This document shows positions 1 through 49,713 of a stretch of 53,177 bases of DNA, one piece after another. Both the position numbers and the translations under genes were made by a program. Each line of letters begins with the position of its first letter. The first letter of the stretch is position 1. Where the stretch lies: positions 124,001-177,177 of the forward strand of contig MEDY01000055.1 of NCBI GenBank assembly GCA_001724265.1. The letters are read 5' to 3'. The stretch comes from Rhizaria sp. SCN 62-66 (taxonomy: Eukaryota). Below the pieces are notes generated by a model. The model saw only the letters and a list, made by a program, of their open reading frames with translations. It was not told the DNA's origin and did not search any database.

Positions 1-1228
1 CGCTGTCGGTCAGAACAGGCGCAGGCTTAAGAACTTCGCTGAACGGCCCGTGCGTCCTCTTACCGGTGCCGCGGTTGGCCTTATCAACGTTCTCTTTGTC
101 CCCCGTGTTGCCCTCGCCGTGGGCTTCCCCTTCGTCTTCGTCGGTAGCGGGGCTGTGCGCCAGGAGCTGGCTCACCCACTCAGTGCGCTTTGCTAAGCCC
201 TCCTCGTCCGCAGCGGCACCTTCTTCGCTCTCTGCCTTTGCAGCAGCAACGTGAGCGCCACTGCGCTCGGTAGATGTGGGAGGAAGCTGACTTGAAGCGG
301 CCTTGTCACCGCTAGCCTGCTGCCCACGCATGTGCGCCTTGCGCCCGCCCGCGCCGCCGCCGTGCCTGCCGTGCGCAGCAGCAGTGGCAGCGGAGGCGGC
401 GGCGCTGACAGCAACGCCAGTAACTGTGCTCTGCATCGGCACAGGCGCAGGGCCGTGCGCAATAAAGTGGTCTAACTCGGCACGGCGCTCCTGGGTAGCG
501 ATAAGCAAAACAATAACGAGGTGAGAATCAAAGGAGCCCGAATGTGAGATGTGACTGTGATTTATCATAGACAACTGCAAACTCGATCATAGACAACTGC
601 AAACTCGAATCTCAAGTTCGCTGCTTTGTAAGTGAATATACAAATAAAAACATACCTCAGTCTCAACCTTTTCGAGCTTGGCAAGCCGCTCACTGGGACA
701 CAGCAGCCAGTACTCGTTATCGTTCTTCTTCGCCCTCACCTCGTCGTGGATGAAGCGACAGCGCGTCCCGAACCGGCACATGCGTGCGAGGTGGTAATTC
801 TGGCACAGCTCCGTCTTGTACCGCGGGCCAAACACGCGCGGGCGGATTTCTTCCACGCCGTGCGCGTAGTGGCATGCGTCGCCGAAGGGGCAGTGCGCGA
901 GGTCGCGGAAGAGCGTGCACATCTCCGTCTTGTACGTTTCCACCACGGCCGGCGGCAGCGACGGGTGCGCGGCGCGCGCCAGTGCGGCGGGGCTAGGCTG
1001 CGGGGCAATGCCCGCGGGGCCGGCGCCGCTGGCTGCAGCGGCGGTGTCGGGGCCGCTGTGGTACGGCGGGGACTGCTCGTGGGTACCGTACCCGTGCCCG
1101 TAGGGCTGGTTCTGAGAGAACTCTTGACGTTGGGCGTGAGGCTGACCGTGACCGGAGGCAGAAAGCAGTGCAGCGTCAGGGCCGCCAAGTGGGGCCTGAT
1201 TGGACGTTGATGCAATCTGGCTGCTCAT
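1..1228 (-). CDS. Tandem CCCH zinc-finger RNA-binding protein (TIS11/tristetraprolin-like), 3'-truncated by the window; exons 1228-656 and 490-<1
   Basis: Two CX8CX5CX3H fingers, each with a YKTEL/YKTEM lead-in (YKTEMCTLFRDLAHCPFGDACHYAH; YKTELCQNYHLARMCRFGTRCRFIH). Intron 655-491 (GTATGT...CAG, phase 0) joins a frame that stays open to the window edge. Confidence 0.88.
564..607. repeat. Exact 22-bp tandem duplication inside an intron
   Basis: ATCATAGACAACTGCAAACTCG twice (564-585, 586-607). Confidence 0.95.
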
Positions 1229-5191: not shown

Positions 5192-8100
5192 ATGTCTTCG
5201 GCGGACCCTGATAACGACGGCGAGACCGCTCCCCAGGCTCTCATTGAGGGCCTTCTCTTCCGCACAGCCGCCACAGATGGCGCCGACGCGAATGAGCACG
5301 CGTTGTCCGAATCGGCGCGGCGCAACCGCCGGCAGACGATGGCCGCGTTCGTGGCCGAGGCCGAGAGCATGGGGCCCTACCCGGAGATCTTCGTGCGCCG
5401 CAACTCCAATGCCGGACTCACGCGTCCCACGCCGCCGCTGCCGACGCCGTCGCACCAGGCGGGCGCCGGCCGTGGCGGCGACGGCTTGCGCTCGCAGTTC
5501 CAGGTTGCGACCTCGTCTGCGCGCGACCGCAACGATTACTCGAAGCACAGCACGCTCGCCGACGCCGACGTCGATGGCGACGTGAGCGTCCGCAACCGCT
5601 ACACGACGCGCGACGACGACTTCGAGGACGCGGCGGCCGCCGGCAGCGGCAGGCACGGCGGGCGCGTGCTCTCAGCGCGCCGCGCGGCCGCCGCGGACTC
5701 CTGCGACAACGGTTTAACTCCGAGCTCGAGCTCCAGCTCCAGCGCCAATGCCAGCGCCGGTGTGAGCGCGGGTGTGAGCGCCAACGCGAGCCGGATGGGC
5801 ACGGGGGCGCAGGGCTCAGTTGCGCCGTCCCCGCGCAACAACGGCGGCGACGGCGGTACCGACAACGACGCGAGCGGTGCTGCGACAGCGAACTCAAGTG
5901 GCGGGAATGCTAGTACCCCCTCAGACTGGGCTGGAGCGCCGACGGCCACGGGGCAGTCATCGTCGTCCTCATCATCATCCTCTCGCAACCACGGCAACAG
6001 GGCGGCGGCGGCCGCGGACCCCGCCTCCGCCGACCCCACCGGCAGCACCGTCAGCGCCAGCGCCAGCGCCGACGCTGGGACCGGGGCCAGCAGCAACACC
6101 ACGGGCGAATCGTCGTACATCGTCTCGATCATCGGGCTGCTCAACGCGCTCCGTGGCTGCGCCGTGTGCCCGCCGCTGTCGCACCTCTTCGCTACACTCC
6201 GGGTTGACCAGCGCACGTGGCGGCTGCTCGCGCGCGCGCCCTGTCCCGACGCCATGGCCGCGGCCGAGCTGGCCCGTCTGCGCGAGGCCCTCTTCGAGCT
6301 AGTCAAGAAGCTAAGCCGACACGCGGAGGAAGAGAAGATTACCACGGCGCTGTCGCGGTCGCGTGCGCTGGCGGAGGAGGCGGCGTACGCGGCGAAGCTG
6401 CTGAAGCGCGTGCAGGCGCTGCGCGTGGTGCTGGGGACGCGCGTCGGCGGCAGCGTCGAGAAGCTTAAGGCCGCGGCGGGGCGGCGCGGGGCCGAGGCGG
6501 CGCCAGTGCTTATGAAGGCTGTATACAAGGCCGCCATGGTTGCTGTCGTTGAGGCGGACGTTGCGGCGGCCGGAGAGGCGCGCGCGCGGGAGCTGGAGGT
6601 CGGGCGCGAGCGAATGGCCAGGAAGCAGGCGCGCCGGGAGCGCAGGATGCGCAAGAAGCAAATCAAAAAGGAAGTACGTCGCAGCACTACTGTGCTTTGT
6701 GTATTAATTATGGGAACTTAATGGTGTGTAGTGTATTCTGCTTTAAGTTGCTTCTCTTTATCTTGCTCCATATCTCACGATTATCAACTTGTCTTTGCTC
6801 TCAACTTGAACTAGGACTCTGCGCGGCGCAAGCTCGCGAAGCGCGCGAGTGCGGCCGACGACGTCCCCTCCTCCGACGACTCGGACTCGCTGCTCTTTGG
6901 CAACGGCGACGGCAACGACGTTTCTTCCTCTTCAGAAGAGTCTGCGTCCTCCGGTGACGAAAACAGTCACGACGGCAACAACAGCAAGAATGCTGAGCGC
7001 AAGAGCAACGGTGATTCCGCCGCTAACGCTGCTGTTGTTGCTGCTGCTCCAGCGCCTCCGGTCAAGTCTATTCCGCTCGACGCAGTGGCGCTGTCGATCA
7101 CACCCGCGATGCTTCGCCGCGCGCGCGTCCGCGCTCGCCGCTGGCTATCCTACGGCCCCCTCGGCACGCCCTCCGCCTCCGCGCTCGCGCTCGCAGCCGC
7201 GGCCTCCGTCTCTGCGGGCACCTCCGCCGCCGCCACAGCGGCCGCCGCGGCGCGCGCGGCCCCGTGGCGTAGCGCGTTGCCCGAGGGCGAGTGCGACAGC
7301 GAGGAACTGAGCGAGAACGAATGCGGCGTCTCGGAGGGGCACGTTGTCAACGCAGGCAGCATCCACAACCAGGCGCAGCGCGTGTGGAAGCTAAGCCGCT
7401 TCGGCGTCTCCGTCGGTGAACTCACTGGTGGCGCGGCCGCAAGCGCCGCAAACACAAGCAGCGGCGGCAGCAGCACGAGCTCCGGCGCGTCGCTGGTGGC
7501 TGGCATCATCAGCAGCGCGGCCGGGGACGACGACGGCGGCGACGCACTGTCTCTGAACCTCACCGCGGCCGGGCTTCCGCCGCCCGCCGCGACGGTCAAC
7601 GCGCGCGCCGCGGCCGCCGCGGCCGCGAGCCGCGCGGGCGTCGAGGGCGACGGCGGGGACTGGGCCGGGGTCTCCTGGGAGGCGGCCGAGGGCGCGCGCC
7701 GGCTGCAATGGGGCTGCCCGGGCTTCACCGACGGCGACGACAACTGGATCCCCGGCTTCCTTTTCAAGCGCGGGCTCGGCGACTGGACGCAGAGCGACCT
7801 GGGCGACAGTCTGATCGCGCTGGCGCTGGCCGCCAAGCGCGAGTACGACGGTGAGATGGCCGCCAAGGAGGAGGCGCGTAGGCGCAAGGCGCAGCAGACA
7901 GCCGCCGTGGCCGAGGCCGAGGCCGCGGCCGCTGACGTAGCGGCCGCGATGGCGGCAGCGAACGGCAGCGCGAACGCCAACAGCAGTGCTAAAAAGGCGA
8001 ATGGTGCTGCTGCGAGCAGCCACGGCGACAGTGCTGAAGCCGTGGCCGCTGCGGCCGCGACAGCTCTCGCCCGCAACTTCGCCCTGAGTTCGAGCAGCAG

Positions 8101-9851
8101 CAGCAGAAGCAGCGGCGGCGTGGCCAGCGCGAGCGGCAGCGCGTTCGAGGGCGTGTGGGAGCGCCTGCTGTCGTACCACACGACGGCGGTGACGATGTGG
8201 CGCGAGCCCAACGTGTGGATGCTGCGCTCGCTGCGCCGCCGGCTCGGCACGCTCATCTACGCCTGCAAACTGGCCGAGGAGGCCGTGGCGGGCTATCTCG
8301 CCGTCGCGCTCGTCGACACCACTGCGCTCACGCTCGCGGCCCTGCTTGGCGACGCGCAGGGCCAGCTCACCGCCACGCGCGGCCTGACTAAGATCGGCGC
8401 GCACTGGGTCCGCGCGGGGCTGCCGCTGCTCGCGCAGCTGCTCTCGGTGGAGCCGACCGTGTTCCCGCAGAACGTCCTGCGCGTGTCGTTTGCGGGGATC
8501 GAGTCGGGCCCGCACTGGGCGCCCGCGCGGCAGCTGGTGCGGCAGGTCGCCGTGCTGCGCGACCTGCTCGCGGCCGTTGACGTGCACGTGCTGCCCCGCG
8601 GCATCCAGGCGCACTCGGGCGCCGTCAAGGCCAGCGGGCCCGCGGCGCTGTCAGCGTCATACGTGCTCACGGGCGGGCAGGACGGTGCGCTGCGCGTCTG
8701 GAACCTCCCGCGCGCCGAGTGCGTCGCGCAGCTCATCGGACACACGTCGGGCGTGTCGTGGTGCGCGCTCACCGAGGTGGACGCCACCGTCATCTCCACC
8801 TCGCTTGACGGCACGGTCAAGCTGTGGGAGGCCAAGACGGGCGCGTGCCTGGCCACGCTGGCCGACCACGGCGACGGCATTCTGTGCGCAGACATCAGCG
8901 CCAACGGCCGCTACCTCGTCACCGGCTCCATGGACTGCACGCTGCGTCTCTGGGGCGTGTCGCAGTCAGGGCAGACCTGTCTGCGCGTGTACGAGGGCCA
9001 CCAGCACTGGGTTACCGCTGTGCGCTTTACCGCCGACGGCGCCAGCATTGTCTCGTGTGGGCTCGACAAGCAGATCTTCGTCTGGCCGTTCAAGACAAAC
9101 ATTGGCGCCTCCTCCGCGGCGGGCAGCAAGGCTGGCAAATCGGCGGCCGGCTCGGCTGCTGCGGCAGCGGCCAACGCAGGCGGGCCGTTGCAGGCCAACG
9201 ACCTGCACAGGGACTTTGTGTCTTATTTGTTGCCGTTGGGAGGCTCGAAGATGCTGTCTGTGGCGCGCGACCAAACCGCCAAGATGTGGTGCACGCAGAC
9301 GGGACAGGTGGTACGTAATTCTTCGAACATGGTCGTATCATAAGACTCCGAGCACACTCCTGATTTATCTGTTCTCAAAATGCATAGATCTGACTTAATT
9401 TGTTAATTGTTATTTTGACTCTTTCTCCGTTCGTTCGATGCTTAGGAGGGAACACTGCCCAATCCTAACAGCCAAACTGTGTCTGCTGCGGCAATCAGTC
9501 CGAATCGCAAGCTCATCGCACTTGGAATGGTCGACTACACAGTGGTACGTCAACTCTCATTTTTGAACTTATTTCACTCCTCTTTCGTTGACCTTGCACG
9601 CAACCTCTCTGTTTTCCTTCTCGTGTGTACGTCAACACTTCATATCCTGCAATCTCACTTCACACTCGCTCTCTTTCTTTTGTATTGTCTTCCATGTATC
9701 GACGCAACAGACTATCTACGACTCGGCCACCGGCTCCCCGCTGCGCCACCTTAAGGTGCACTGCGAAGGCATCTCGCACATGCGCTTCACGACCAACAAG
9801 TCTCTGCTTGTCGGCACCACCGACGGACGGATCCTCACGCTTGAACTTTAA
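5192..9851 (+). CDS. Large WD40-repeat protein (about 1405 aa) with a long low-complexity/helical N-terminus; exons 5192-6673, 6815-9310, 9446-9544, 9711-9851
   Basis: C-terminal GH...WD-type repeats (LTGGQDGALRVWN, GHTSGVSWC...SLDGTVKLWE, TGSMDCTLRLW, GHQHWVTAVRF). Three phase-0 GTACGT...AG introns keep the frame to TAA. Confidence 0.8.
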
Positions 9852-13814: not shown

Positions 13815-16700
13815 TTAAAGCACGATCTTCCTGGCGGTGGGGTCCGTCGCGGCCGCCGCCTCCGAAGCCGCGATGGCGTCGGCGTCCTGCGTGACGTACG
13901 ACGGCAGCGTCGCCGTGGTGCCCGCCACCACAGTCACGTACTGCATGCCGCTGCCGCTGCCGCTGCCCGCGCCGGCGTTGCCCGCCTCCGCGGCGCCGGC
14001 CTCGGCACCGGTGTCGCCGACGCGCGTGAGCTTCTCGGCGGCCTCGCTGTGCTTCTTGAAGACGCGCGAAGCGGACATGTCGCGCCGGTCGTGCCGCGGC
14101 ACGTGCTGCTCGTCCTCCTGTGGCTGCCCCCAATAGTTGATGTCGTTGGCCCAGTGCAGCCACATCCACGTCGACTGCAGCGCCAGCTCGCGCGCGCACA
14201 GCTCCGAGTACACGTACTTCTCCTTGAACTCGGTGCGCTGCTTCAGCGTCGCCTCGTACTGCTCCTCCATCGTCGGCCGCACCTCGTGGAACTTCTTGTT
14301 CTTGACGGCGCGCGAGTTGATCTCGGTCGTCTTGAGGTCGTACGTGCGGAAGTGCACGCGATCCAGCAGCAGCCCCAGCGCGGGCGCCATCGGCACGCGG
14401 ATGCGTTCCTCCGTGAAGAGCGCCTCGGTGGCGCGGGGCGCGAGCGTGCCGCGGGCGAGCGCGACCGAGTAGCCGATCATCTTGCGGATCTGGTGCAACA
14501 TGAACGACTGGCCGTGGACGACCATGTGGACGAACTCGACGCCGTTCATGTAGAAGAAGCCCGTGGTGACGAACGAGTCGATGAAGCGGCGGCACGACGG
14601 GTCGCGCGGGTGCCGGCCCTTAGTCAGGTTGTGGTGGTTCTGCGACCCGATGAAGGTCTTGAGGATCCCGTCTACGCGCGCGCGCTCCGCCGGCGACATG
14701 CGGTACTCAAGCAGCTCGGGCGGGCACGCGGGGATGCCGATCTCCGCGAGTGAGGCGCGCACCATCTCAGCCAGCGACTGCACCTCGCCTTGCTCCTCCT
14801 GCTCGGCCGCGGCGGCCGCGGCGGCGACGCCCGCGGCGGCCTCCTCGTCCGTCTTGTATCCGCTAAGGTCGTCGCCGCCGCGGCGCGCGGTCGCGGCGGC
14901 AGACTCGGAGAAGGCGTCGACAGTCTCCTTCTCGCCATCGCCGCCGTCGCTCGCGCCAGCGGCGTCCATCTTCTCCATCAGCTTCATGATCTGGTGCGTC
15001 GCCGCCGACAACGCCAGCTGCGGTCCCGCGGCTGAGGCGGCGGCGCGCGCGGCGGCCTCTGCGGCGGCGGCCTCGCGGGCGTCGACGACGGGGATCTCGT
15101 CGCTGTCGGCGACGGCCGTGACGGCGGCGGCGACGACCCCCGAGGTCGCGGACGCCGCCGCCGCGCGCGCCGACTCATCGGCCGCGGCGAAGGTCTCGGA
15201 CAGCGGTGGCACGGCGGCGAGCATGGCGGCGTGGAGCCCGGGCGGGTACTGCGCCACGGGCACGAAGGCAAAAGACGGGATGATGTACTCGTAGGTGCGC
15301 GAGGTGGCGCACAGCTTCGAGTCGAAGGTCGATGATACGCGGTCCACGCGCAGCACCTGGACCTGCGCCGGCAGGAAGGCGTTGATGCGCGCGCACATGG
15401 TCTCGGACGCGTACTCGGCGTCGATCAGCACGGAATGCTTCCACGAGAGCTCCTCCTTGAGGCGCGCCACGGTGGTGACGGCGGTGCGGACCAGCGGCGT
15501 CTGAACCTTGATGCGGACCGGGATCGTGTCGATGTACACCACCGTGCCGGGCGCAGTGCGCGTCGCTGACTCAGCAGTCGCAGGCGCAGTCTCGGTGCTC
15601 TCAGCAGTAGAGTCGGTCATAGCGGGAGCGTTCTCCGTGTTGCTGCTGCTGGGCAGAGGGAGGATGACGTCGGCGGCCTCGTAGGCAGCGAGCTCTTGCT
15701 TGAAGTCCTCGGGCTGCGCGTCCTTGACCTGCTGCGCGAGCTTCCTGATCTCGGCGCGCACCTCTGCCTCGCGGGCGTCGAACTCCGCCTGCTTCTCGGG
15801 CGGCATCAGCGCGTCGTCGGGCACGGTCATCTTGAGAGACACCACGTTGCCGGCCGCGTGCACGCCCTTGTCGGTGCGTGCAGCGCGCGACCAGCGGACC
15901 TTGGGCAGGTCGTTGTGGTTGTCCTCGGTGAGGAACCCGGCTTTGAAGATGGCGTTCTCCAGGTCGCCCTCAATGGTGCGCGTGCCTGGGTTGATCTGCA
16001 GCCCCTTGTAGCCCGTCCCGCGGTACGCCAGCAGCAGACACATTTTGAGCTTGCGGTTCTTGCCCTCGTCCTCGCCGCGCTCGCGCGGGGGCCGGTTGAT
16101 CTCACCCAGCGGCGCGTTGGGGTCACGTTCACGGTCTTCGCCGCCGTTGCCGCGGGCCGAACGGTCACGGGGCGTCCAGTCCTGGTTGCGGTTCAGCCGG
16201 GCCTCGTACGCCGCGCTGCGCTTCTCGCGACGCACGAACGGAGCAGTGCTGCTGTTGCCGTTGCCGCCTTCGGTGTTGTTGGGGTCGGAGGTGCGGGCAG
16301 CACCACGGTCGCCGCGGCCGCCGCCGTGGCCGCCGCGACCGCGACCGCCGGGACGACCGCCGCGGCGGTTATTGTTGTTGTTGTAGTCGCGGGCGTCTTT
16401 GGCGGCGTCGGTGCCCTTGAACCAGCCAGAGGTCGTGTCGCTACTGCTGGGGATCCCGGAGGCGTCAGAAGAAGATGAGGACTGGTCGGAAGACATGGTG
16501 CGGAGAGGATTCGAGAAGAGAAGAGTGCGAAACGAGGCGGAAGTCAACGAACTCGAACGCTGGGTGCTAAAGAAGAGACTGCGTAGACTGCGACTACTGC
16601 TGCTGTTGCAAGCACTGGCGAAAGGCTGTGCAGGGGTAAGGGCGGGGCAAGCGACTTTAGAAGCAGAGATACGGAGATTCGCGAGAGCTCGATTCAGCAT
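13815..16700 (-). CDS. PUS1: tRNA pseudouridine synthase, TruA/Pus1 family (intronless)
   Basis: LLAYRGTGYKGLQIN...TIEGDLENA; RAARTDKGVHAAGNVVSLK with the catalytic Asp; SRTYEYIIP; GQSFMLHQIRKMIG; PMAPALGLLL. Confidence 0.93.
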   Translation of the reverse strand: MLNRALANLRISASKVACPALTPAQPFASACNSSSSRSLRSLFFSTQRSSSLTSASFRTLLFSNPLRTMSSDQSSSSSDASGIPSSSDTTSGWFKGTDAAKDARDYNNNNNRRGGRPGGRGRGGHGGGRGDRGAARTSDPNNTEGGNGNSSTAPFVRREKRSAAYEARLNRNQDWTPRDRSARGNGGEDRERDPNAPLGEINRPPRERGEDEGKNRKLKMCLLLAYRGTGYKGLQINPGTRTIEGDLENAIFKAGFLTEDNHNDLPKVRWSRAARTDKGVHAAGNVVSLKMTVPDDALMPPEKQAEFDAREAEVRAEIRKLAQQVKDAQPEDFKQELAAYEAADVILPLPSSSNTENAPAMTDSTAESTETAPATAESATRTAPGTVVYIDTIPVRIKVQTPLVRTAVTTVARLKEELSWKHSVLIDAEYASETMCARINAFLPAQVQVLRVDRVSSTFDSKLCATSRTYEYIIPSFAFVPVAQYPPGLHAAMLAAVPPLSETFAAADESARAAAASATSGVVAAAVTAVADSDEIPVVDAREAAAAEAAARAAASAAGPQLALSAATHQIMKLMEKMDAAGASDGGDGEKETVDAFSESAAATARRGGDDLSGYKTDEEAAAGVAAAAAAAEQEEQGEVQSLAEMVRASLAEIGIPACPPELLEYRMSPAERARVDGILKTFIGSQNHHNLTKGRHPRDPSCRRFIDSFVTTGFFYMNGVEFVHMVVHGQSFMLHQIRKMIGYSVALARGTLAPRATEALFTEERIRVPMAPALGLLLDRVHFRTYDLKTTEINSRAVKNKKFHEVRPTMEEQYEATLKQRTEFKEKYVYSELCARELALQSTWMWLHWANDINYWGQPQEDEQHVPRHDRRDMSASRVFKKHSEAAEKLTRVGDTGAEAGAAEAGNAGAGSGSGSGMQYVTVVAGTTATLPSYVTQDADAIAASEAAAATDPTARKIVL

Positions 16701-20102: not shown

Positions 20103-21323
20103 AAGTGACGACGAAGACTGAAAAACAAGTTTTTCGATCAACAACTGTGACAAGCGACTGCTCGCGACAAGTTTTTATTTTACTGATACTTAGCCATGCG
20201 ATGTTTGTTTCATTCTTATTGTTCTCATTTGTGACTCTGATGTGATTCACTTATTGCAGACAATACAATATATCTCTTAACACACGCAATTCAACATAGG
20301 CTCTTTTTTTTACTGCCTAACACGATGATCACTGAACTTCTTTCGGCGCTTCCAACGTCTCTCGACGATTGCAGGAATTGCCTTGCGTTGCGCGACGCTC
20401 CGTTTGAACCTATGACGCCTCAAGTCTAGAAGTGTCATTTGCAACGCGGCGTATCGCATCACCTCAGACATGCACAACACGCACTCACATGTTCGACCTT
20501 AAGGCTGCTAGTGGTGGTGTTGAGACATGGGCTGCCGAAGATGTGCGAGCTGGCTCAACCTATCAATGATGCGAGCGATAAAGAATGAAGAGGAATTACA
20601 GCGGAATTTTGTTTAACTTCGACTTGCAGAGATATTAATTTTCAATGTGTTGATGAGTGCGAAGTGGATTTCAAGTCATGACAGGTGACCGACCTTTACG
20701 GTTCGTTCATGATCACTGATGTTTTGCTCACGACCCAAACGCAACATGGTTTCCTGGCGTTCTTAAGGTGTTTTCTTATAATACACACGTAAACGTATGG
20801 CTACCGGTTTGCGACGATTAAGAAGCGTGGAAAACATTTGAGTGATAGGTTGATGCGAGGGGAGAGGGTCAGCTTAAGTGCAGTTCGTGAAACCTGATCG
20901 TTTTTACAATTGAGAATCCAGAATCAGACTCATGAAATAATGTGTGTCTTATCCCCAAATCAAAAGGCGCATGTGTGACTTGTATTTCTTTTTTGGATCT
21001 CATGTAATTATTTACAACCACGTAATTGACAAAGTGATGATCTTCTGCAACTTAAACAAATCAGTTGTCCAAGTGCATTGCTCCCCAGGTCACATGCTGC
21101 TCCAAAAATGAGAGTTTGTTTTCGACGGATTCAACTGTTTCTTCATTCTGGCAATAACACTCTCTAGCAACCCTGATGGTGGCTTACACCAATCGACTCA
21201 AAAGGTCGAAACGTGCGTGTCACAAGTGGGTGGGTTCTGCATATGTTCACTGCAAAGCGCTTAGCAAAGAAGTGGCTGAGCGAAAACGAAACGGAAACAT
21301 CATGTAATTATCCCCCAAGCATA

Positions 21324-22745
21324 TCACCCACGCTTTTGAAACACTTCCAGGTAGTATTTCTCGCGCCACGACTCTTCCGGGTGCGACAGAAGCGTCCCGA
21401 ACATGTGTTTCGGCCACGGGTTGATGGGGTACGCCAAGTCGATGAACGGGTTGTGGCAGTGGCGATCTTGAAAGAACGCGCGCATCTCAATGTACTTCTG
21501 CTGCGAGGTATTTGTGTTGCAGTAGGGTACCGCGTTGTACATGTGAGTGGGGCTCACGTCTTCCGGGCGGCAAAAGCCGTAGAGCAGCCGGTGAGGGTTC
21601 CACTCCTGCAGCAGCTTGTCGGCGTCAATGCCCTCGCAGAGCGTCAGCTCAAGACGCATGGCGCGATAAGCGCTGTTCAACCGCTTCACAAACTCGCTTT
21701 CGCAGTCCGAGCTCATAAGGCAGCGCAGGTTGCCGCCCCTCTCGAAGAAGTAGAGCTCGATGTCGCTCTCAGTGATCCCGGGTTTCAGCACGCGCGCAAC
21801 CGCAGCAAGCTCAACGAGGGGGAGATCGTATAGGTACAGCTTAAGATAGTGGTGCGGCGAGTTGGCGGGATTGTAGTTTTTTTCGTTTGGCAGCGTCGGG
21901 ATAACAGTGCACCATGCAGGCATCTGCACATGAAACTCGTCTTTCCGCAGCTGCAGCGGCGAGTAGAAGTAGAGCGCCTCCGGGCTCGCGACAACATCTT
22001 TGAGGTGGCTGGCCTTGCCCATGTCGCGCTCCTTGGCGTCGTAAACCTCGACGTCGCCAGTGCCGCCCGGCACGTACACAACGCGCCTGTTTGCGAGCTC
22101 GGCCACGACCGGCGTGCCCTGGGCGATGAACTGCAGGATGCAGAAGTTGAGCGCAGCGGACTTGCCGCGGCCCTCAATGCCGTGGACAAGCGCGCCGCGA
22201 AAGTCAGCACGAGGCTCGAGCTCCGAGGGCAGCTTCGGATAACGCGGAGACTTGTATTGTTTCTTGCAGGCTTCAGCGTGTTTTTCGCGGAGCTTCTCAG
22301 CGTCCAGGGCCGCATTGTCGATGACAGCGCGGATAGCTTCGTTCGCGCGCCATGGAGCGACGTCTTCGGTCTTGATCGACTCGTGCAGCGCGCTGAGATG
22401 GGTCATGAGGGTGAACGTCTGATTGGTCGCGGCGAGCGTGGCGCCCGGGGGCGCCTCGGGAAAGCAGGCGAGCGGCGTCAAACCGCCCTCGGGGAGCGTG
22501 CAGGTCGCCACGTAACTGTCGGGTGGAAACCCAGTCGGGATCTTGAGCTGTCCCGAGCGAACGGCATCGACCGTGACTTGGATGCCGGTCTTCCACTCCT
22601 CTAATGTACGAGACTGAGGGCCCTTTGGGGGAGGTGTTTGTTGAGTTGAGAGGCACGCTGCAGTGACGCGTACCAAAGAGGTCGACAACGTGTCAAAGGA
22701 CAAACGTGCGGCGCCATTTTTAGCAAGGCTCAAAAGCCTAAACAT
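21324..22745 (-). CDS. P-loop NTPase resembling Crinkler/RHS-type (CR-NTPase) effectors, with a putative mitochondrial presequence (intronless, 473 aa from ATG 22745)
   Basis: Hydrophobic strand plus Walker A (GALVHGIEGRGKS); downstream PNEKNY, LPLVELAAV, FFERGGNLRCL and PHRLLY in the order recalled for CRN/RHS NTPases; N-terminus MFRLLSLAKNGAARLSF. Confidence 0.65.
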   Translation of the reverse strand: MFRLLSLAKNGAARLSFDTLSTSLVRVTAACLSTQQTPPPKGPQSRTLEEWKTGIQVTVDAVRSGQLKIPTGFPPDSYVATCTLPEGGLTPLACFPEAPPGATLAATNQTFTLMTHLSALHESIKTEDVAPWRANEAIRAVIDNAALDAEKLREKHAEACKKQYKSPRYPKLPSELEPRADFRGALVHGIEGRGKSAALNFCILQFIAQGTPVVAELANRRVVYVPGGTGDVEVYDAKERDMGKASHLKDVVASPEALYFYSPLQLRKDEFHVQMPAWCTVIPTLPNEKNYNPANSPHHYLKLYLYDLPLVELAAVARVLKPGITESDIELYFFERGGNLRCLMSSDCESEFVKRLNSAYRAMRLELTLCEGIDADKLLQEWNPHRLLYGFCRPEDVSPTHMYNAVPYCNTNTSQQKYIEMRAFFQDRHCHNPFIDLAYPINPWPKHMFGTLLSHPEESWREKYYLEVFQKRG

Positions 22746-47916: not shown

Positions 47917-49713
47917 ATGGCTAACTATCTTGCTCCTGAAGGCTCTGCCATCTGGCAGGACCGCGAGCTGCGCTTTGACAGCCCCATGAAGCTGCTTCTC
48001 CCTCGCACTGGCGAAAAGGTACGGCGACCCCCTGATTCTTCTATCTACGGTGTTACCGCTCGAGAACAACGGTTGCATAATGTTAGAGTGTCATATTCTG
48101 TTGCACTGCATTGGTTTACTGATGCTATGCACGTTTTATGACAAAAATTTGTCACTATCTTCCGCTCCGGCCAGCGCCAGCGAAGGCCTTCATAACGGTC
48201 ATGTTCGCTGCCAGCTCCTTCTGTCTGTTGTGCAGGACAAGCGCAACATGTTGCACATATATTTCTATCATTCAAACTATTCTCGTATCCACATTTGTTA
48301 TCATTCCTTGGTTATCTCTTTGTTTGCTCTGTCTTGCCTTACTTACCCTTTCTCTATGCATGCATACTTCACACGCACTCAGGTCATCGACTCGATCAAT
48401 GCCGTGGAGGATACCAAGGGCAACAACGGCGAGCGCGGCGCTTTTAGCGTTACTAATCTTCGCATTATCTGGTGCTCGCACGCCAACCCCAACATCAACC
48501 TTAGTACGTTCCCGTTCGCTTTTCACAGAATTGATTCATTTATAGCAATCGTGCAATTTCTCTTGTTATCACTGACTTGGGCAATCCTACTGTATTTGTC
48601 TCTGAATGACTCACGTGGACGTATGTGTTATCTTTTTGTCTTGTGCGTGATCATCTCTGTCGCCGCAGGCATCGGCTTCGACTGCGTGGTGTCGATGTCG
48701 ATCCGCTCGGCATCCTCCCGCCTCCGGGGCGGCAACGTCCAGGCCCTCCACGTCATGACCAAGTTCAACAATAGCCGCTTCGAGTTTATCTTCACCTCGC
48801 TTGTCAAGAACTCCCCGCGGCTCTTCACCACCATCCAGGCCGTCAGCAGGGCCTACGAGACCACGCGCGTGTACCGCGACGTCAAGTACGTGGACGGCAA
48901 CTCTCGATCGCGCGAAATACCTCTCCAATATATGCGCACTTTATAATTATTTTTATGAACGTATTCTACTTACTTTGACGGATAGTTCCTCATTTTTCCA
49001 ATTCAAATCTTTTCTTGCTTCCTCCTAGACTGCGCACGGCCATCATCCGCGACGGGTCCCTGCTGCTGCTGCCGCACGAGACGGTGATCGCGACTATCCC
49101 GCGCGTGAGCAACGCCTCGACTGCGAGCCCGACGTTGGGCACGCTGCACCTGACGAGCATCCGTCTCGTGTGGCACGCCGCGTCCAACGACGCCTTCAAC
49201 CTCAGCGTGCCCCACACGCGCATCGCGCGCGTCTACCACTTCAACAACAACAGCGCCGCCTCGAACGCGCTGCTCGTCGTGCAGACGCGCGCTGCGCCCG
49301 GGGAGCCCGCGGGGCACAAGCTGGGCTTCTTCCCCGACACGGATCGCGCACTGCCCGCGCTCGTGGAGCAAATCGGCAAGGTTTTCCTGCTCTACGCCGC
49401 GCGGCCCGAGTTGGGCATCGACACCGTGATTGATGACCGCCGCGCCGTCGCGGACCCGTCCTCGGTGGCCGCGAAGCGCGTGGAGGACGACTTGCGCGTG
49501 CTGGCGCCCGGCGAGGCTGAGAGCGCTGTCGCGGGCGGCGCCGGCGGCGGCAGCGGCGGCGGCGGCGGGTTCGACGCCCTGGCCGCTTTTTACGCTGACG
49601 GGCCGATCGATCTGGACCGGGAGCCAGAGTATAACGCAGACTTGGGACTCGCTGTGGAGCGCATGCGTGAAGGCATGGAGATCGCCGACCTCTGGCAGGT
49701 CACCAGCGGCTGA
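47917..49713 (+). CDS. BBS5: BBSome subunit BBS5; exons 47917-48018, 48383-48503, 48669-48885, 49029-49713
   Basis: WQDRELRFD; VEDTKGNNGERG; VTNLRIIW; RFEFIFT; RAYETTRVYRDVKLR; REPEYNADLGLAVE...LW; intron phases 0, 1, 2 keep the frame. Confidence 0.95.

Follow-up and report, generated by a model that had tools for sequence, protein, structure and literature searches.

P-loop NTPases of the Crinkler/RHS (CR/RHS) type are known from effector proteins and from proteins of selfish elements, and they are thought to regulate the nuclease to which they are attached. The RHS proteins of trypanosomes are nuclear. A second P-loop protein that proved relevant here is mS29 (DAP3), a mitochondrion-specific ribosomal protein for which we know of no bacterial ancestor. 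In the accessible parts of the mS29 literature, this protein is described as using its P-loop structurally and not catalytically, and the Walker A function lost in the human mutant K134A is reported to be dispensable for the mitoribosome. According to the accessible part of a 2017 review, Crinklers (CRNs) follow the architecture NTPase + HTH + REase, and the pairs of CR NTPase and REase are viewed as derived from prokaryotic transposon modules.

In this work, we describe P0001, a protein encoded in a stretch of 53,177 nucleotides (the window, that is, the whole stretch of DNA that was analyzed) whose host is an uncultured GC-rich eukaryote (protist) of wastewater or bioreactor communities. The intronless open reading frame (ORF) reported in the initial annotation was recovered on the minus strand, which that annotation had not given, and every motif string quoted for it was found again at its residues (Table 1). 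The remark that poly-Ala runs are missing also holds, as four or more consecutive Ala residues do not occur in P0001, while at least one such run is present in 8 of the 14 other ORFs compared. The ORF is a real gene, beyond chance, because its third codon positions are strongly GC-biased (GC3 0.753 versus GC2 0.435, with flanks of 0.41–0.47 GC) and because relatives exist at the protein level, with E-values down to 7.4e-77. The gene is nuclear and looks single-copy, and its identical sequence was found in sequencing runs from three studies. Neighboring genes include housekeeping genes and point to a eukaryote that carries BBS5, a cilium-associated gene; the window also encodes an MCM AAA+ protein, and no Rfam family or tRNA was detected in it. 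Transcript support consists of one 191-nt contig within the ORF, at a depth of about 2, from one polyA metatranscriptome, and a second RNA run (X14) contained nothing on the stretch. An RNA contig from run X7 (20812–21087) maps to the 3' flank, where two genes converge, and can be assigned to neither of them.

Table 1. Features of the P0001 gene and protein; positions refer to the window.
Feature	Residues	Position	Strand	Basis or content
Whole ORF, protein P0001		21324..22745	minus	473 codons + stop, intronless
N-terminal extension, presequence-like	1-44	22614..22745	minus	composition, low pLDDT
Conserved N-terminal domain	45-140	22326..22613	minus	motifs QVTVDAVRSG, TCxLPEGG, HESIK
Variable linker	141-181	22203..22325	minus	low identity, pLDDT <50
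P-loop NTPase core, RHS/Crinkler type	182-345	21711..22202	minus	hhalign, pLDDT mostly 70-95
Walker A GIEGRGKS, intact	189-196	22158..22181	minus	
ALYFYSP, Walker B region	257-263	21957..21977	minus	
Ser262 (TCG), Walker B acidic position	262	21960..21962	minus	end of predicted strand 258-262
PNEKNY	286-291		minus	
LPLVEL	308-313		minus	
FFERGGNLRCL	333-343		minus	
RGGNLRC	336-342	21720..21740	minus	
Post-NTPase helical/hairpin region	346-432	21450..21710	minus	hhalign, low pLDDT
PHRLLY	384-389		minus	
Short C-terminal tail, with stop	433-473	21324..21449	minus	

The family to which P0001 belongs is very small. An exhaustive phmmer search of 1.84 billion representatives returned only six relatives, the best at E 7.4e-77, 3.3e-49, and 1.9e-27 and the weakest at about 2e-6; P0007, an NTPase protein that carries another domain C-terminally, was matched at E 2.1e-6. 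In a word-indexed search of 5.8e9 sequences, P0001 found itself alone and alignment A1 added only P0008, while a scan of metagenome contigs with alignment A2 yielded one 44-residue fragment, L001. The link to a known family came from profile comparison. When A2 was compared by hhalign with A3, an alignment of metagenomic NTPase proteins bearing an extra C-terminal domain, among them P0028, the two matched with 98.5% probability (E 1.4e-15) over 236 columns, corresponding to residues 182–432 of P0001; the window's own MCM AAA+ protein, used as a negative control, reached 0.1%. P0028 passes the Pfam model RHSP (E 2.6e-9, 37.4 bits at a cut-off of 25), and P0024, P0007, and P0008 give long but weak RHSP alignments below the cut-off (E 0.015–0.12). 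P0001 itself matches no Pfam family at E ≤10, RHSP included, and A2 against the RHSP-positive P0028 alone gave 50.6% probability (E 1.6e-4, 107 columns).

Protein-language-model neighbors in the ESM-Atlas point the same way. Compared by features, an RHS cluster was found at 0.96 and a Crinkler cluster at 0.87, and of the 30 named clusters closest to P0001, 11 were RHSP-bearing sets; compared by structure, the best match (TM 0.54) was a cluster in which 21% of the members carry Crinkler N-domains. The proposal of the initial annotation that P0001 is a CR/RHS-type NTPase is thus supported by the A2–A3 alignment, the RHSP score of P0028, and the Atlas neighbors, the link being transitive through one intermediate family. 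Other P-loop families were matched weakly: nSTAND3 and similar Pfam models hit the relatives within the P-loop only (nSTAND3 E 2.7e-4). Three phmmer matches in the PDB to the C962R primase of ASFV (E about 0.4) were dismissed as chance, and a term search of a 2026 paper on AACRNL found no NTPase or P-loop content.

With these kin, P0001 shares a homologous P-loop core and the helical region that follows it (kinetoplastid retrotransposon hot spot proteins, Pfam RHSP, PF07999; CRN C-termini of the NTPase + HTH + REase type), as well as the motifs G-x-x-G-x-G-K-S, hhhhD-P, S/T-x-P-N/K, and G-G-x-x-R common to CR/RHS kin and the P0001 family. It differs from them in having no domain at the position of the C-terminal nuclease, no Crinkler Ubl header of the LxLFLAK type but an N-terminal domain of its own, no Asp in Walker B, no sign, within the window, of belonging to a multi-copy or subtelomeric array, and a putative organellar presequence. 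STAND and AAA+ proteins (nSTAND3, NACHT-like, Cdc6/ORC, p97) have in common with P0001 the generic ASCE P-loop fold; their matches cover the neighborhood of Walker A only or superpose poorly, and P0001 lacks their repeat or sensor domains. Our preferred reading, to which we give about an even chance, is that P0001 belongs, as a degenerate and possibly organellar protein, to a nuclease-less side branch of the RHS/Crinkler-type P-loop NTPases that has very few members. Such an offshoot is new, whereas the CR/RHS NTPase kind itself is known.

The nuclease reported as missing is indeed absent, as about 40 residues are left past the region aligned with relatives, a tail too short to hold a nuclease domain. 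Residues 345–432 of P0001 align with residues 210–293 of P0007, that is, with the segment between the NTPase and the C-terminal domain, and the region 346–432 occupies the HTH position of the published CRN architecture. A tblastn search with 26 related proteins detected no nuclease relic in the 3' flank. The C-terminal domain of the relatives, for which Pfam gave no match, would be a nuclease by analogy with the published CRN architecture and from motifs read by eye.

At the other end of the protein, the initial annotation proposed that the header had been replaced by a mitochondrial presequence. A simple swap of this kind does not agree with our results, since the N-terminal extension is followed by a conserved domain of 96 residues that had been overlooked. 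This domain shares 47 of its 96 residues with P0002 and 41 with P0003, and most of its length is modeled at pLDDT 86–96 as a helix, two short strands, and then helices, which is not a beta-grasp fold. The domain has no Pfam match, and the Crinkler Ubl header (PF20147) was not matched in P0001 at E ≤10; the domain may represent a different, unclassified header. The linker behind it is far less similar, with 4 of 17 aligned residues identical to P0002 and 10 of 40 to P0003.

The NTPase core combines strong conservation (83 of 163 residues identical to P0002) with the loss of a catalytic residue. Walker A satisfies the GxxxxGK[ST] pattern. The statement that Walker B lacks its Asp proved accurate, as P0001 has Ser262 where relatives carry the acid: Asp in all 14 members of the clade with the C-terminal domain and in P0002 and P0003, and Glu in P0012, so that all 17 aligned relatives outside P0006 and P0011 are acidic here. 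The TCG codon matches neither Asp codon at any of its positions and is therefore not a single-base error; in both DNA runs compared, the contigs break around this codon (gaps 21920–21994 and 21962–21973), where allelic variants may have gone unseen. Further downstream, Gly337 is near-invariant over the superfamily, and Arg341, a possible sensor or finger Arg, is kept in all but one of the 19 members with sequence at this position. In the clade with the C-terminal domain, GK[ST] is kept in 13 of 13 members; among the six nuclease-less clusters, the Walker A Lys is kept in three (P0001, P0002, P0011) and is Asn or Thr in the other three. Decay of catalytic residues thus runs through the whole nuclease-less subfamily, with losses in several of its members, and P0001 is probably catalytically dead.

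Decay of this kind raises the question of whether P0001 is a relic of a selfish CR/RHS-type element, a functionless pseudogene in the making. We regard this as very improbable. It would account for the lost Walker B Asp, for relatives that lack the Walker A Lys or are shortened (P0011, 244 aa; P0003, 339 aa), for Y360C, a non-synonymous polymorphism seen in two runs of one study, and for the very thin RNA evidence. However, the 473-codon frame is intact, with a strong third-position GC bias matching that of host genes, the same sequence recurs in runs of three studies, and the locus has housekeeping neighbors and neither repeats nor transposon marks. Moreover, the N-terminal domain and the NTPase core are 49–51% identical to P0002, in contrast to 24–29% in the linker and C-terminal regions, a difference that indicates domain-wise constraint.

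The locus itself does not resemble a mobile element. No terminal, direct, or tandem repeats were found there beyond short repeats of 16–29 nt at chance level, no transposase or transposon ends lie near the gene, and the window holds no paralogue or second copy of P0001. A transposon nature of the locus was rejected from the chance-level repeats, the lack of tandem repeats, and the single copy in the window. The role in conflict or defense that had been suggested is likewise not supported, as transposon marks are missing and no paralogue occurs in the window.

The N-terminal extension bears on where P0001 would act. Its composition is as previously described (4 K/R, 1 D/E, and 9 S/T in residues 1–34), and residues 1–41 contain 5 K/R, 1 D/E, and 10 S/T before a Pro-rich linker, QQTPPPKGPQSR. 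M1 is the sole Met ahead of residue 114, and no in-frame ATG lies upstream; as M1 is the only possible start, the extension is always made. It is disordered in the AlphaFold2 (AF2) model (pLDDT <40). From its composition, we consider the extension a putative mitochondrial presequence, which would place the work of P0001 in the mitochondrion; the case for this is about evenly balanced.

P0001 might instead be a cytosolic or nuclear RHS-like protein, its 44-residue Arg/Ser/Ala-rich extension being a disordered segment typical of this GC-rich genome and not a targeting signal. We find this doubtful, although several observations lean toward it. Of 15 ORFs in the window, 5 have an N-terminal composition like that of a presequence (≥3 K/R and ≤1 D/E within 34 residues), and the amphipathicity of the extension is only moderate, with a hydrophobic moment of 0.39 compared with 0.20 on average and 0.51 at most in the rest of P0001. 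In addition, the sequence kin are of the RHS/Crinkler type, and published CRNs localize to nuclei according to the accessible part of the 2017 review. The relatives as called have no such extension and offer no aligned counterpart to it; however, their gene starts are unreliable, and the 'Met' start of P0003 is TTG in L001. Against a cytosolic or nuclear protein stand the obligatory start at M1, the classic M-F-R-L-L beginning, the single acidic residue in 41, the Pro-rich junction, and the fact that no basic cluster resembling a nuclear localization signal is evident by eye. Similar N-termini on two neighboring ORFs, one of them encoding a pseudouridine synthase, also favor a presequence.

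The predicted structure added an unexpected resemblance. The AF2 model was built from a shallow alignment of 22 sequences and has a mean pLDDT of 60.7, with 212 of 473 residues below 50; a single-sequence model (pLDDT 36.8) was unusable. Its top matches among solved structures are mitoribosomal chains (Z 11.3, 11.2, 11.1, and 9.7; rmsd 3.4–4.1 Å over 216–221 residues), while AAA+ proteins in the same comparison reached Z ≤9.0 at rmsd 6.8–9.5 Å. In an independent wide fold search, the six top rows were again mitoribosome entries (Z 10.9–9.3). The superposition begins at residue 65–67, inside the N-terminal domain, and its sequence identity is only 9–15%. No solved CR/RHS NTPase exists with which to compare these values. 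From entry titles and chain lengths, we take the matched small-subunit chains to be mS29. Foldseek searches were less specific and returned only generic AAA+ proteins from the PDB (p97/Cdc48, ClpB; TM about 0.24) and, from BFVD, generic viral AAA+ proteins, RFC, and one nSTAND3, with four matches at E ≤0.001, none of them specific.

mS29/DAP3 is thus the nearest solved fold to the P0001 model, including part of the region that precedes the P-loop, and, like P0001, it is nuclear-encoded and has an N-terminal extension. The two differ in that P0001 carries some 40 additional residues ahead of the P-loop, has another kind of C-terminal region, and finds its significant sequence kin among NTPase proteins with an extra C-terminal domain and not among ribosomal proteins. 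After mS29, the structural ranking continues with the transposon AAA+ regulators TnsC and MuB (7mbw_A, Z 9.0; 9g0f_A, 8.7; 7m99_A, 8.3; 7rzy_1, 8.2; 8xvb_A, 7.9), with a higher rmsd (5.8–7.0 Å) and no sequence similarity to P0001. This match fits the prokaryotic-transposon origin of CR NTPase and REase pairs given in the accessible part of the 2017 review.

A match to DAP3/mS29 had been named in advance as a result that would speak against a CR-type NTPase, and the outcome was divided: no sequence or profile method gave such a match, and among solved structures it was small-subunit chains of mitoribosomes that matched best. P0001 could instead be the host's own extremely divergent mS29/DAP3, a small-subunit head protein imported by its presequence, with orthologues in related protists as its relatives. 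We consider this unlikely. The matched chains do come from mammals, yeast, Neurospora, green algae, and a plant (Z 11.3–9.3, rmsd 3.4–5.4 Å, 205–237 residues), the size of 473 aa, the presequence-like N-terminus, and the missing nuclease are all compatible with it, and decay of the P-loop is tolerated in mS29, as the accessible account of human K134A indicates. But no sequence method gave a DAP3 signal, and the Pfam model DAP3 (PF10236) was not matched at E ≤10 by P0001 or by any of the 18 relatives scanned. Likewise, neither P0001 nor profiles A1, A3, and A4 matched a mitoribosomal PDB chain at E ≤10, although the fold searches showed chains from at least eight lineages to be present in the PDB. 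The exhaustive phmmer search gave an NTPase that has another domain at its C-terminus (E 2e-6) and no DAP3-like protein, and no DAP3 set stood among the ESM-Atlas neighbors listed. The P0001 family is also tiny, while mS29 is universal, and the mS29 identity of the matched chains is our own assignment and not a label given by the tool.

Under the preferred reading of P0001 as a nuclease-less RHS/Crinkler-type NTPase, the protein would consist of a basic, hydroxyl-rich extension, a subfamily-specific domain, a linker, the NTPase core, a helical/winged region, and a short tail. It would still bind nucleotide, because its Walker A is intact, but would hydrolyze it poorly or not at all, and may serve as a nucleotide-stabilized scaffold or switch instead of a motor or a nuclease regulator. 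The change of the Walker A Lys to Asn or Thr in relatives suggests that the subfamily has been selected for something other than catalysis, a role in which the conserved N-terminal domain is most likely the effective part. In terms of mechanism, the predicted model makes a ribonucleoprotein scaffold in mitochondria the most concrete guess, because the modeled N-terminal domain and NTPase superpose best on mS29, a structural P-loop protein.

A bolder possibility, which we hold to be distinctly improbable, joins the two lines of resemblance. A transposon-derived CR/RHS NTPase, shorn of its nuclease and of catalysis, could have been recruited to the mitochondrion as a structural protein whose fold is like that of mS29. 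It would then be either a lineage-specific addition to, or substitute within, the mitoribosome or nucleoid or, more broadly, a living intermediate showing that mS29/DAP3 arose from CR/TnsC-like stock. In full-text literature searches, 'retrotransposon hot spot' and 'DAP3' never occurred together in one paper, and the accessible portions of the matches listed for mS29, P-loop, and TnsC contain no link between mS29 and TnsC.

At present, P0001 stands as the product of an unannotated, orphan-like protist gene whose remote homology is solidly assigned. A conserved branch that has shed the nuclease, has lost catalytic residues in several members, and has acquired an N-terminal domain peculiar to it would clearly exemplify how a conflict module can be domesticated as a scaffold of the host. 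Should the mitochondrial address be real, P0001 would be one of few such modules at work inside an organelle, and the unexpected match to mS29 offers a testable lead on the origin of that mitochondrial protein.

The 473-residue protein P0001, product of the ORF under study, belongs to a rare, nuclease-less branch of RHS/Crinkler-type NTPases with an N-terminal domain of its own and, judging from its N-terminal composition, is possibly mitochondrial. Its gene is real and intact. The window is eukaryotic nuclear DNA, with a GC content of 0.60-0.72 in coding and about 0.42-0.47 in intergenic regions. The large ORFs code for an MCM protein, a threonyl-tRNA synthetase, a thiamin pyrophosphokinase, a WD40 protein, a pseudouridine synthase and a BBS5 fragment; the neighbours of the P0001 gene are housekeeping genes, and no repeats, tandem arrays or second copy of this gene were found in the window. 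All sequence strings quoted in the initial annotation are present in the ORF. Because its GC content is 0.753 at third and 0.435 at second codon positions and falls to 0.41-0.47 in the flanks, the overlapping plus-strand ORF was rejected as the usual GC-rich antisense artefact. Most GC-rich genes of the window are overlapped by long antisense ORFs, mechanical artefacts of GC-rich coding DNA. The BBS5 ORF, with a partial family match and a low GC content, is likely part of a gene with introns, in which case the genome is not wholly intronless. One polyA metatranscriptome contains a 191-nt contig within the ORF and a 276-nt contig in its 3' flank, and a second RNA run contains no contig on this stretch; the RNA contigs weakly support transcription.

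Features of the window around and beyond the P0001 gene
Feature	Position	Strand	Remarks
P0001 ORF	21324-22745	-	
Overlapping ORF	21849-22604	+	antisense artefact, not a gene
191-nt RNA contig	21523-21713		
Variant T>C	21667		Tyr360 to Cys; in X7 (RNA run) and X4, one study
Variant A>G	22481		synonymous, Leu89
Ser262 codon (TCG)	21960-21962		contig gaps 21920-21994 and 21962-21973
WD40-protein ORF	7109-9343	+	starts MLRRARVRARRW..., presequence-like, same style as P0001
Pseudouridine-synthase-domain ORF	13815-16700	-	starts MLNRALANLRISASK..., presequence-like, same style as P0001
BBS5 ORF	48080-48946	+	GC 0.50, unusually low; family match partial, two stretches within model positions 61-135 of 334

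P0001 contains no Pfam family at E <=10, and a PDB sequence search gave no meaningful match. An exhaustive phmmer search of 1.84 billion representatives returned only six relatives, all unnamed proteins from metagenome or run assemblies: P0002 (404 aa; 43% and E 7e-77 to P0001), P0003 (339 aa, E 3e-49), P0004 (233 aa), P0005 (295 aa), P0006 (183 aa, on a 700-nt contig) and P0007 (486 aa, E 2e-6). Since the window DNA is present, at no less than 0.89 of sampled words, in four runs from three wastewater or bioreactor studies, the source is an uncultured eukaryote. P0006 has a hydrophobic signal-peptide-like N-terminus, a shortened N-domain and Thr for the Walker A Lys; either it is a secreted variant or the gene call is faulty.

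The family assignment runs through P0007, whose 13 relatives all combine a P-loop core with a helical segment and a further, conserved domain of ~190 residues at the C-terminus. One of them, P0028, exceeds the Pfam cut-off for RHSP (37.4 bits versus 25, E 2.6e-9, model positions 1-199); P0024, P0007 and P0008 give long but sub-threshold RHSP alignments, and P0024 also carries SAM and SAP domains. Compared with the profile of the P0007 family (A3), a profile built from the four nearest full-length proteins (A2) matched with a probability of 98.5% (E 1.4e-15, 236 columns), pairing residues 182-432 of P0001 with 39-293 of P0007; a control comparison with MCM, an AAA+ protein encoded in the window, gave 0.1%, and P0028 alone gave 50.6% (E 1.6e-4). 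Independently of these profiles, P0001 lies in the ESM Atlas at 0.96 next to RHS clusters as well as fungal and oomycete clusters without a name; of the 30 nearest named clusters, 11 are RHSP-bearing sets, and a Crinkler cluster lies at 0.87. By structure, the closest Atlas neighbour (TM 0.54) is a cluster from chytrids, 21% of whose members carry a Crinkler N-domain. The initially proposed Crinkler/RHS NTPase core thus stands, by this transitive chain and with no direct family match. P0007-P0028, metagenomic proteins of 440-717 aa combining an RHS-like NTPase with the conserved C-terminal domain (motifs F-Q/E-D, I-D and F-Q-x-T-I-G), probably represent CR-type proteins from free-living eukaryotes that have escaped annotation.

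The predicted structure brings in another candidate relative, the mitoribosomal protein mS29/DAP3. The AF2 model (22-sequence alignment, pTM 0.61) has two confidently modelled parts, the NTPase core and a domain at residues 45-140. Foldseek returned only generic AAA+ proteins. A VIA-align search of 48,161 representative chains ranked six mitoribosome small-subunit chains first, namely 6ydp_Ag (Z 10.9, rmsd 3.5 Å, 218 residues aligned), 6yw5_XX (10.1), 8d8k_W (10.0), 8apn_Bw (9.7), 7pkq_x (9.6) and 9evs_W (9.3), followed by TnsC (9.0 and 8.7) and then Cdc6/Orc1, RFC and Clp proteins. A second comparison, over Foldseek's top 997 chains, agreed: 5aj3_g (Z 11.3 at 3.4 Å), 6gaz_Ag (11.2), 6rw4_X (11.1) and 8d8l_W (9.7) precede chains at Z <=9.0 and rmsd 6.8-9.5 Å. 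From entry titles and chain ends (397/398, 450), we take the matched chains to be mS29, which would be the closest fold to that predicted for P0001. Sequence methods (P0001, relatives and family profiles against Pfam and PDB) gave no mS29 match, and no DAP3 set is among the Atlas neighbours listed. As these searches revealed no solved CR/RHS NTPase, mS29 may be no more than the solved structure that happens to lie closest to the CR/RHS group in general. Together with mS29, the transposon ATPases TnsC and MuB adjoin in the ranking as the closest solved folds to an RHS/Crinkler-type NTPase, and this ranking hints that mS29 may belong to the same NTPase lineage, a relationship stated in no paper found by full-text literature search.

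At the N-terminus, residues 1-41 are disordered in the model and contain 5 K/R, 1 D/E and 10 S/T before a Pro-rich junction. Five of 15 window ORFs taken as genes show this crude composition too; the 15 were chosen from 31 ORFs of 200 aa or more, with the plausible member retained wherever two overlapped. Apart from M1, no Met precedes residue 114, and the stretch upstream holds no in-frame ATG, so the extension is always translated if the gene is unspliced. The relatives as called lack the extension, which proves nothing, since the start "Met" of P0003 is TTG on metagenome contig L001 (3053-3352), with no ATG at the called start, and a 41-codon ATG-started ORF lies just upstream in the same frame. 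The two are separated by a single TAG, for which a short intron, readthrough and a sequencing error are candidate explanations. In base composition (coding 0.6-0.83 GC, spacer 0.38) this contig is similar to the window; its P0003-like gene may therefore be a paralogue from the same genome or from a closely related one. We give mitochondrial import of P0001 roughly even chances on these features. Contrary to the initial suggestion, the header was not simply exchanged for a presequence, because the domain at residues 45-140, overlooked then, is conserved (47/96 identical to P0002; pLDDT 86-96 along most of it).

According to excerpts of a 2017 review, the commonest CRN C-terminus is NTPase, HTH and REase, and the NTPase-REase pair is tied to prokaryotic transposons. 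In P0001, P0002 and P0012, little sequence follows the segment they have in common with A3, and the A3 C-terminal domain, a putative nuclease by position and conserved acidic/polar motifs that has no Pfam match, lacks a counterpart there, in agreement with the absence of a nuclease noted initially. No relic of it was found downstream of the P0001 gene. The missing Walker B Asp was also confirmed: its place is taken by Ser262, the last residue of predicted strand 258-262. Logan contigs from both DNA runs break around this codon; the break may be an allelic bubble or strain difference exactly at the catalytic-site substitution. In one DNA run, the 168-nt contig after the break has a depth of 2.5 versus about 6.5. 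The clade with the C-terminal domain has the Walker B Asp in 14/14 and GK[ST] in 13/13, whereas the six nuclease-less clusters differ at the Walker A Lys, which is retained by P0001, P0002 and P0011 but replaced by Asn in P0003 and by Thr in P0012 and P0006; both motifs are intact in P0002 only. Published excerpts on mS29 describe its bound GDP as structural and its Walker A mutant K134A as dispensable. The conflict or defence role initially proposed for P0001 is supported by none of these results. Loss of the nuclease-position domain and relaxed catalysis coincide; the P0001 branch is probably hydrolysis-dead, and the two changes together argue for a scaffold or nucleotide-binding role of the nuclease-less branch.
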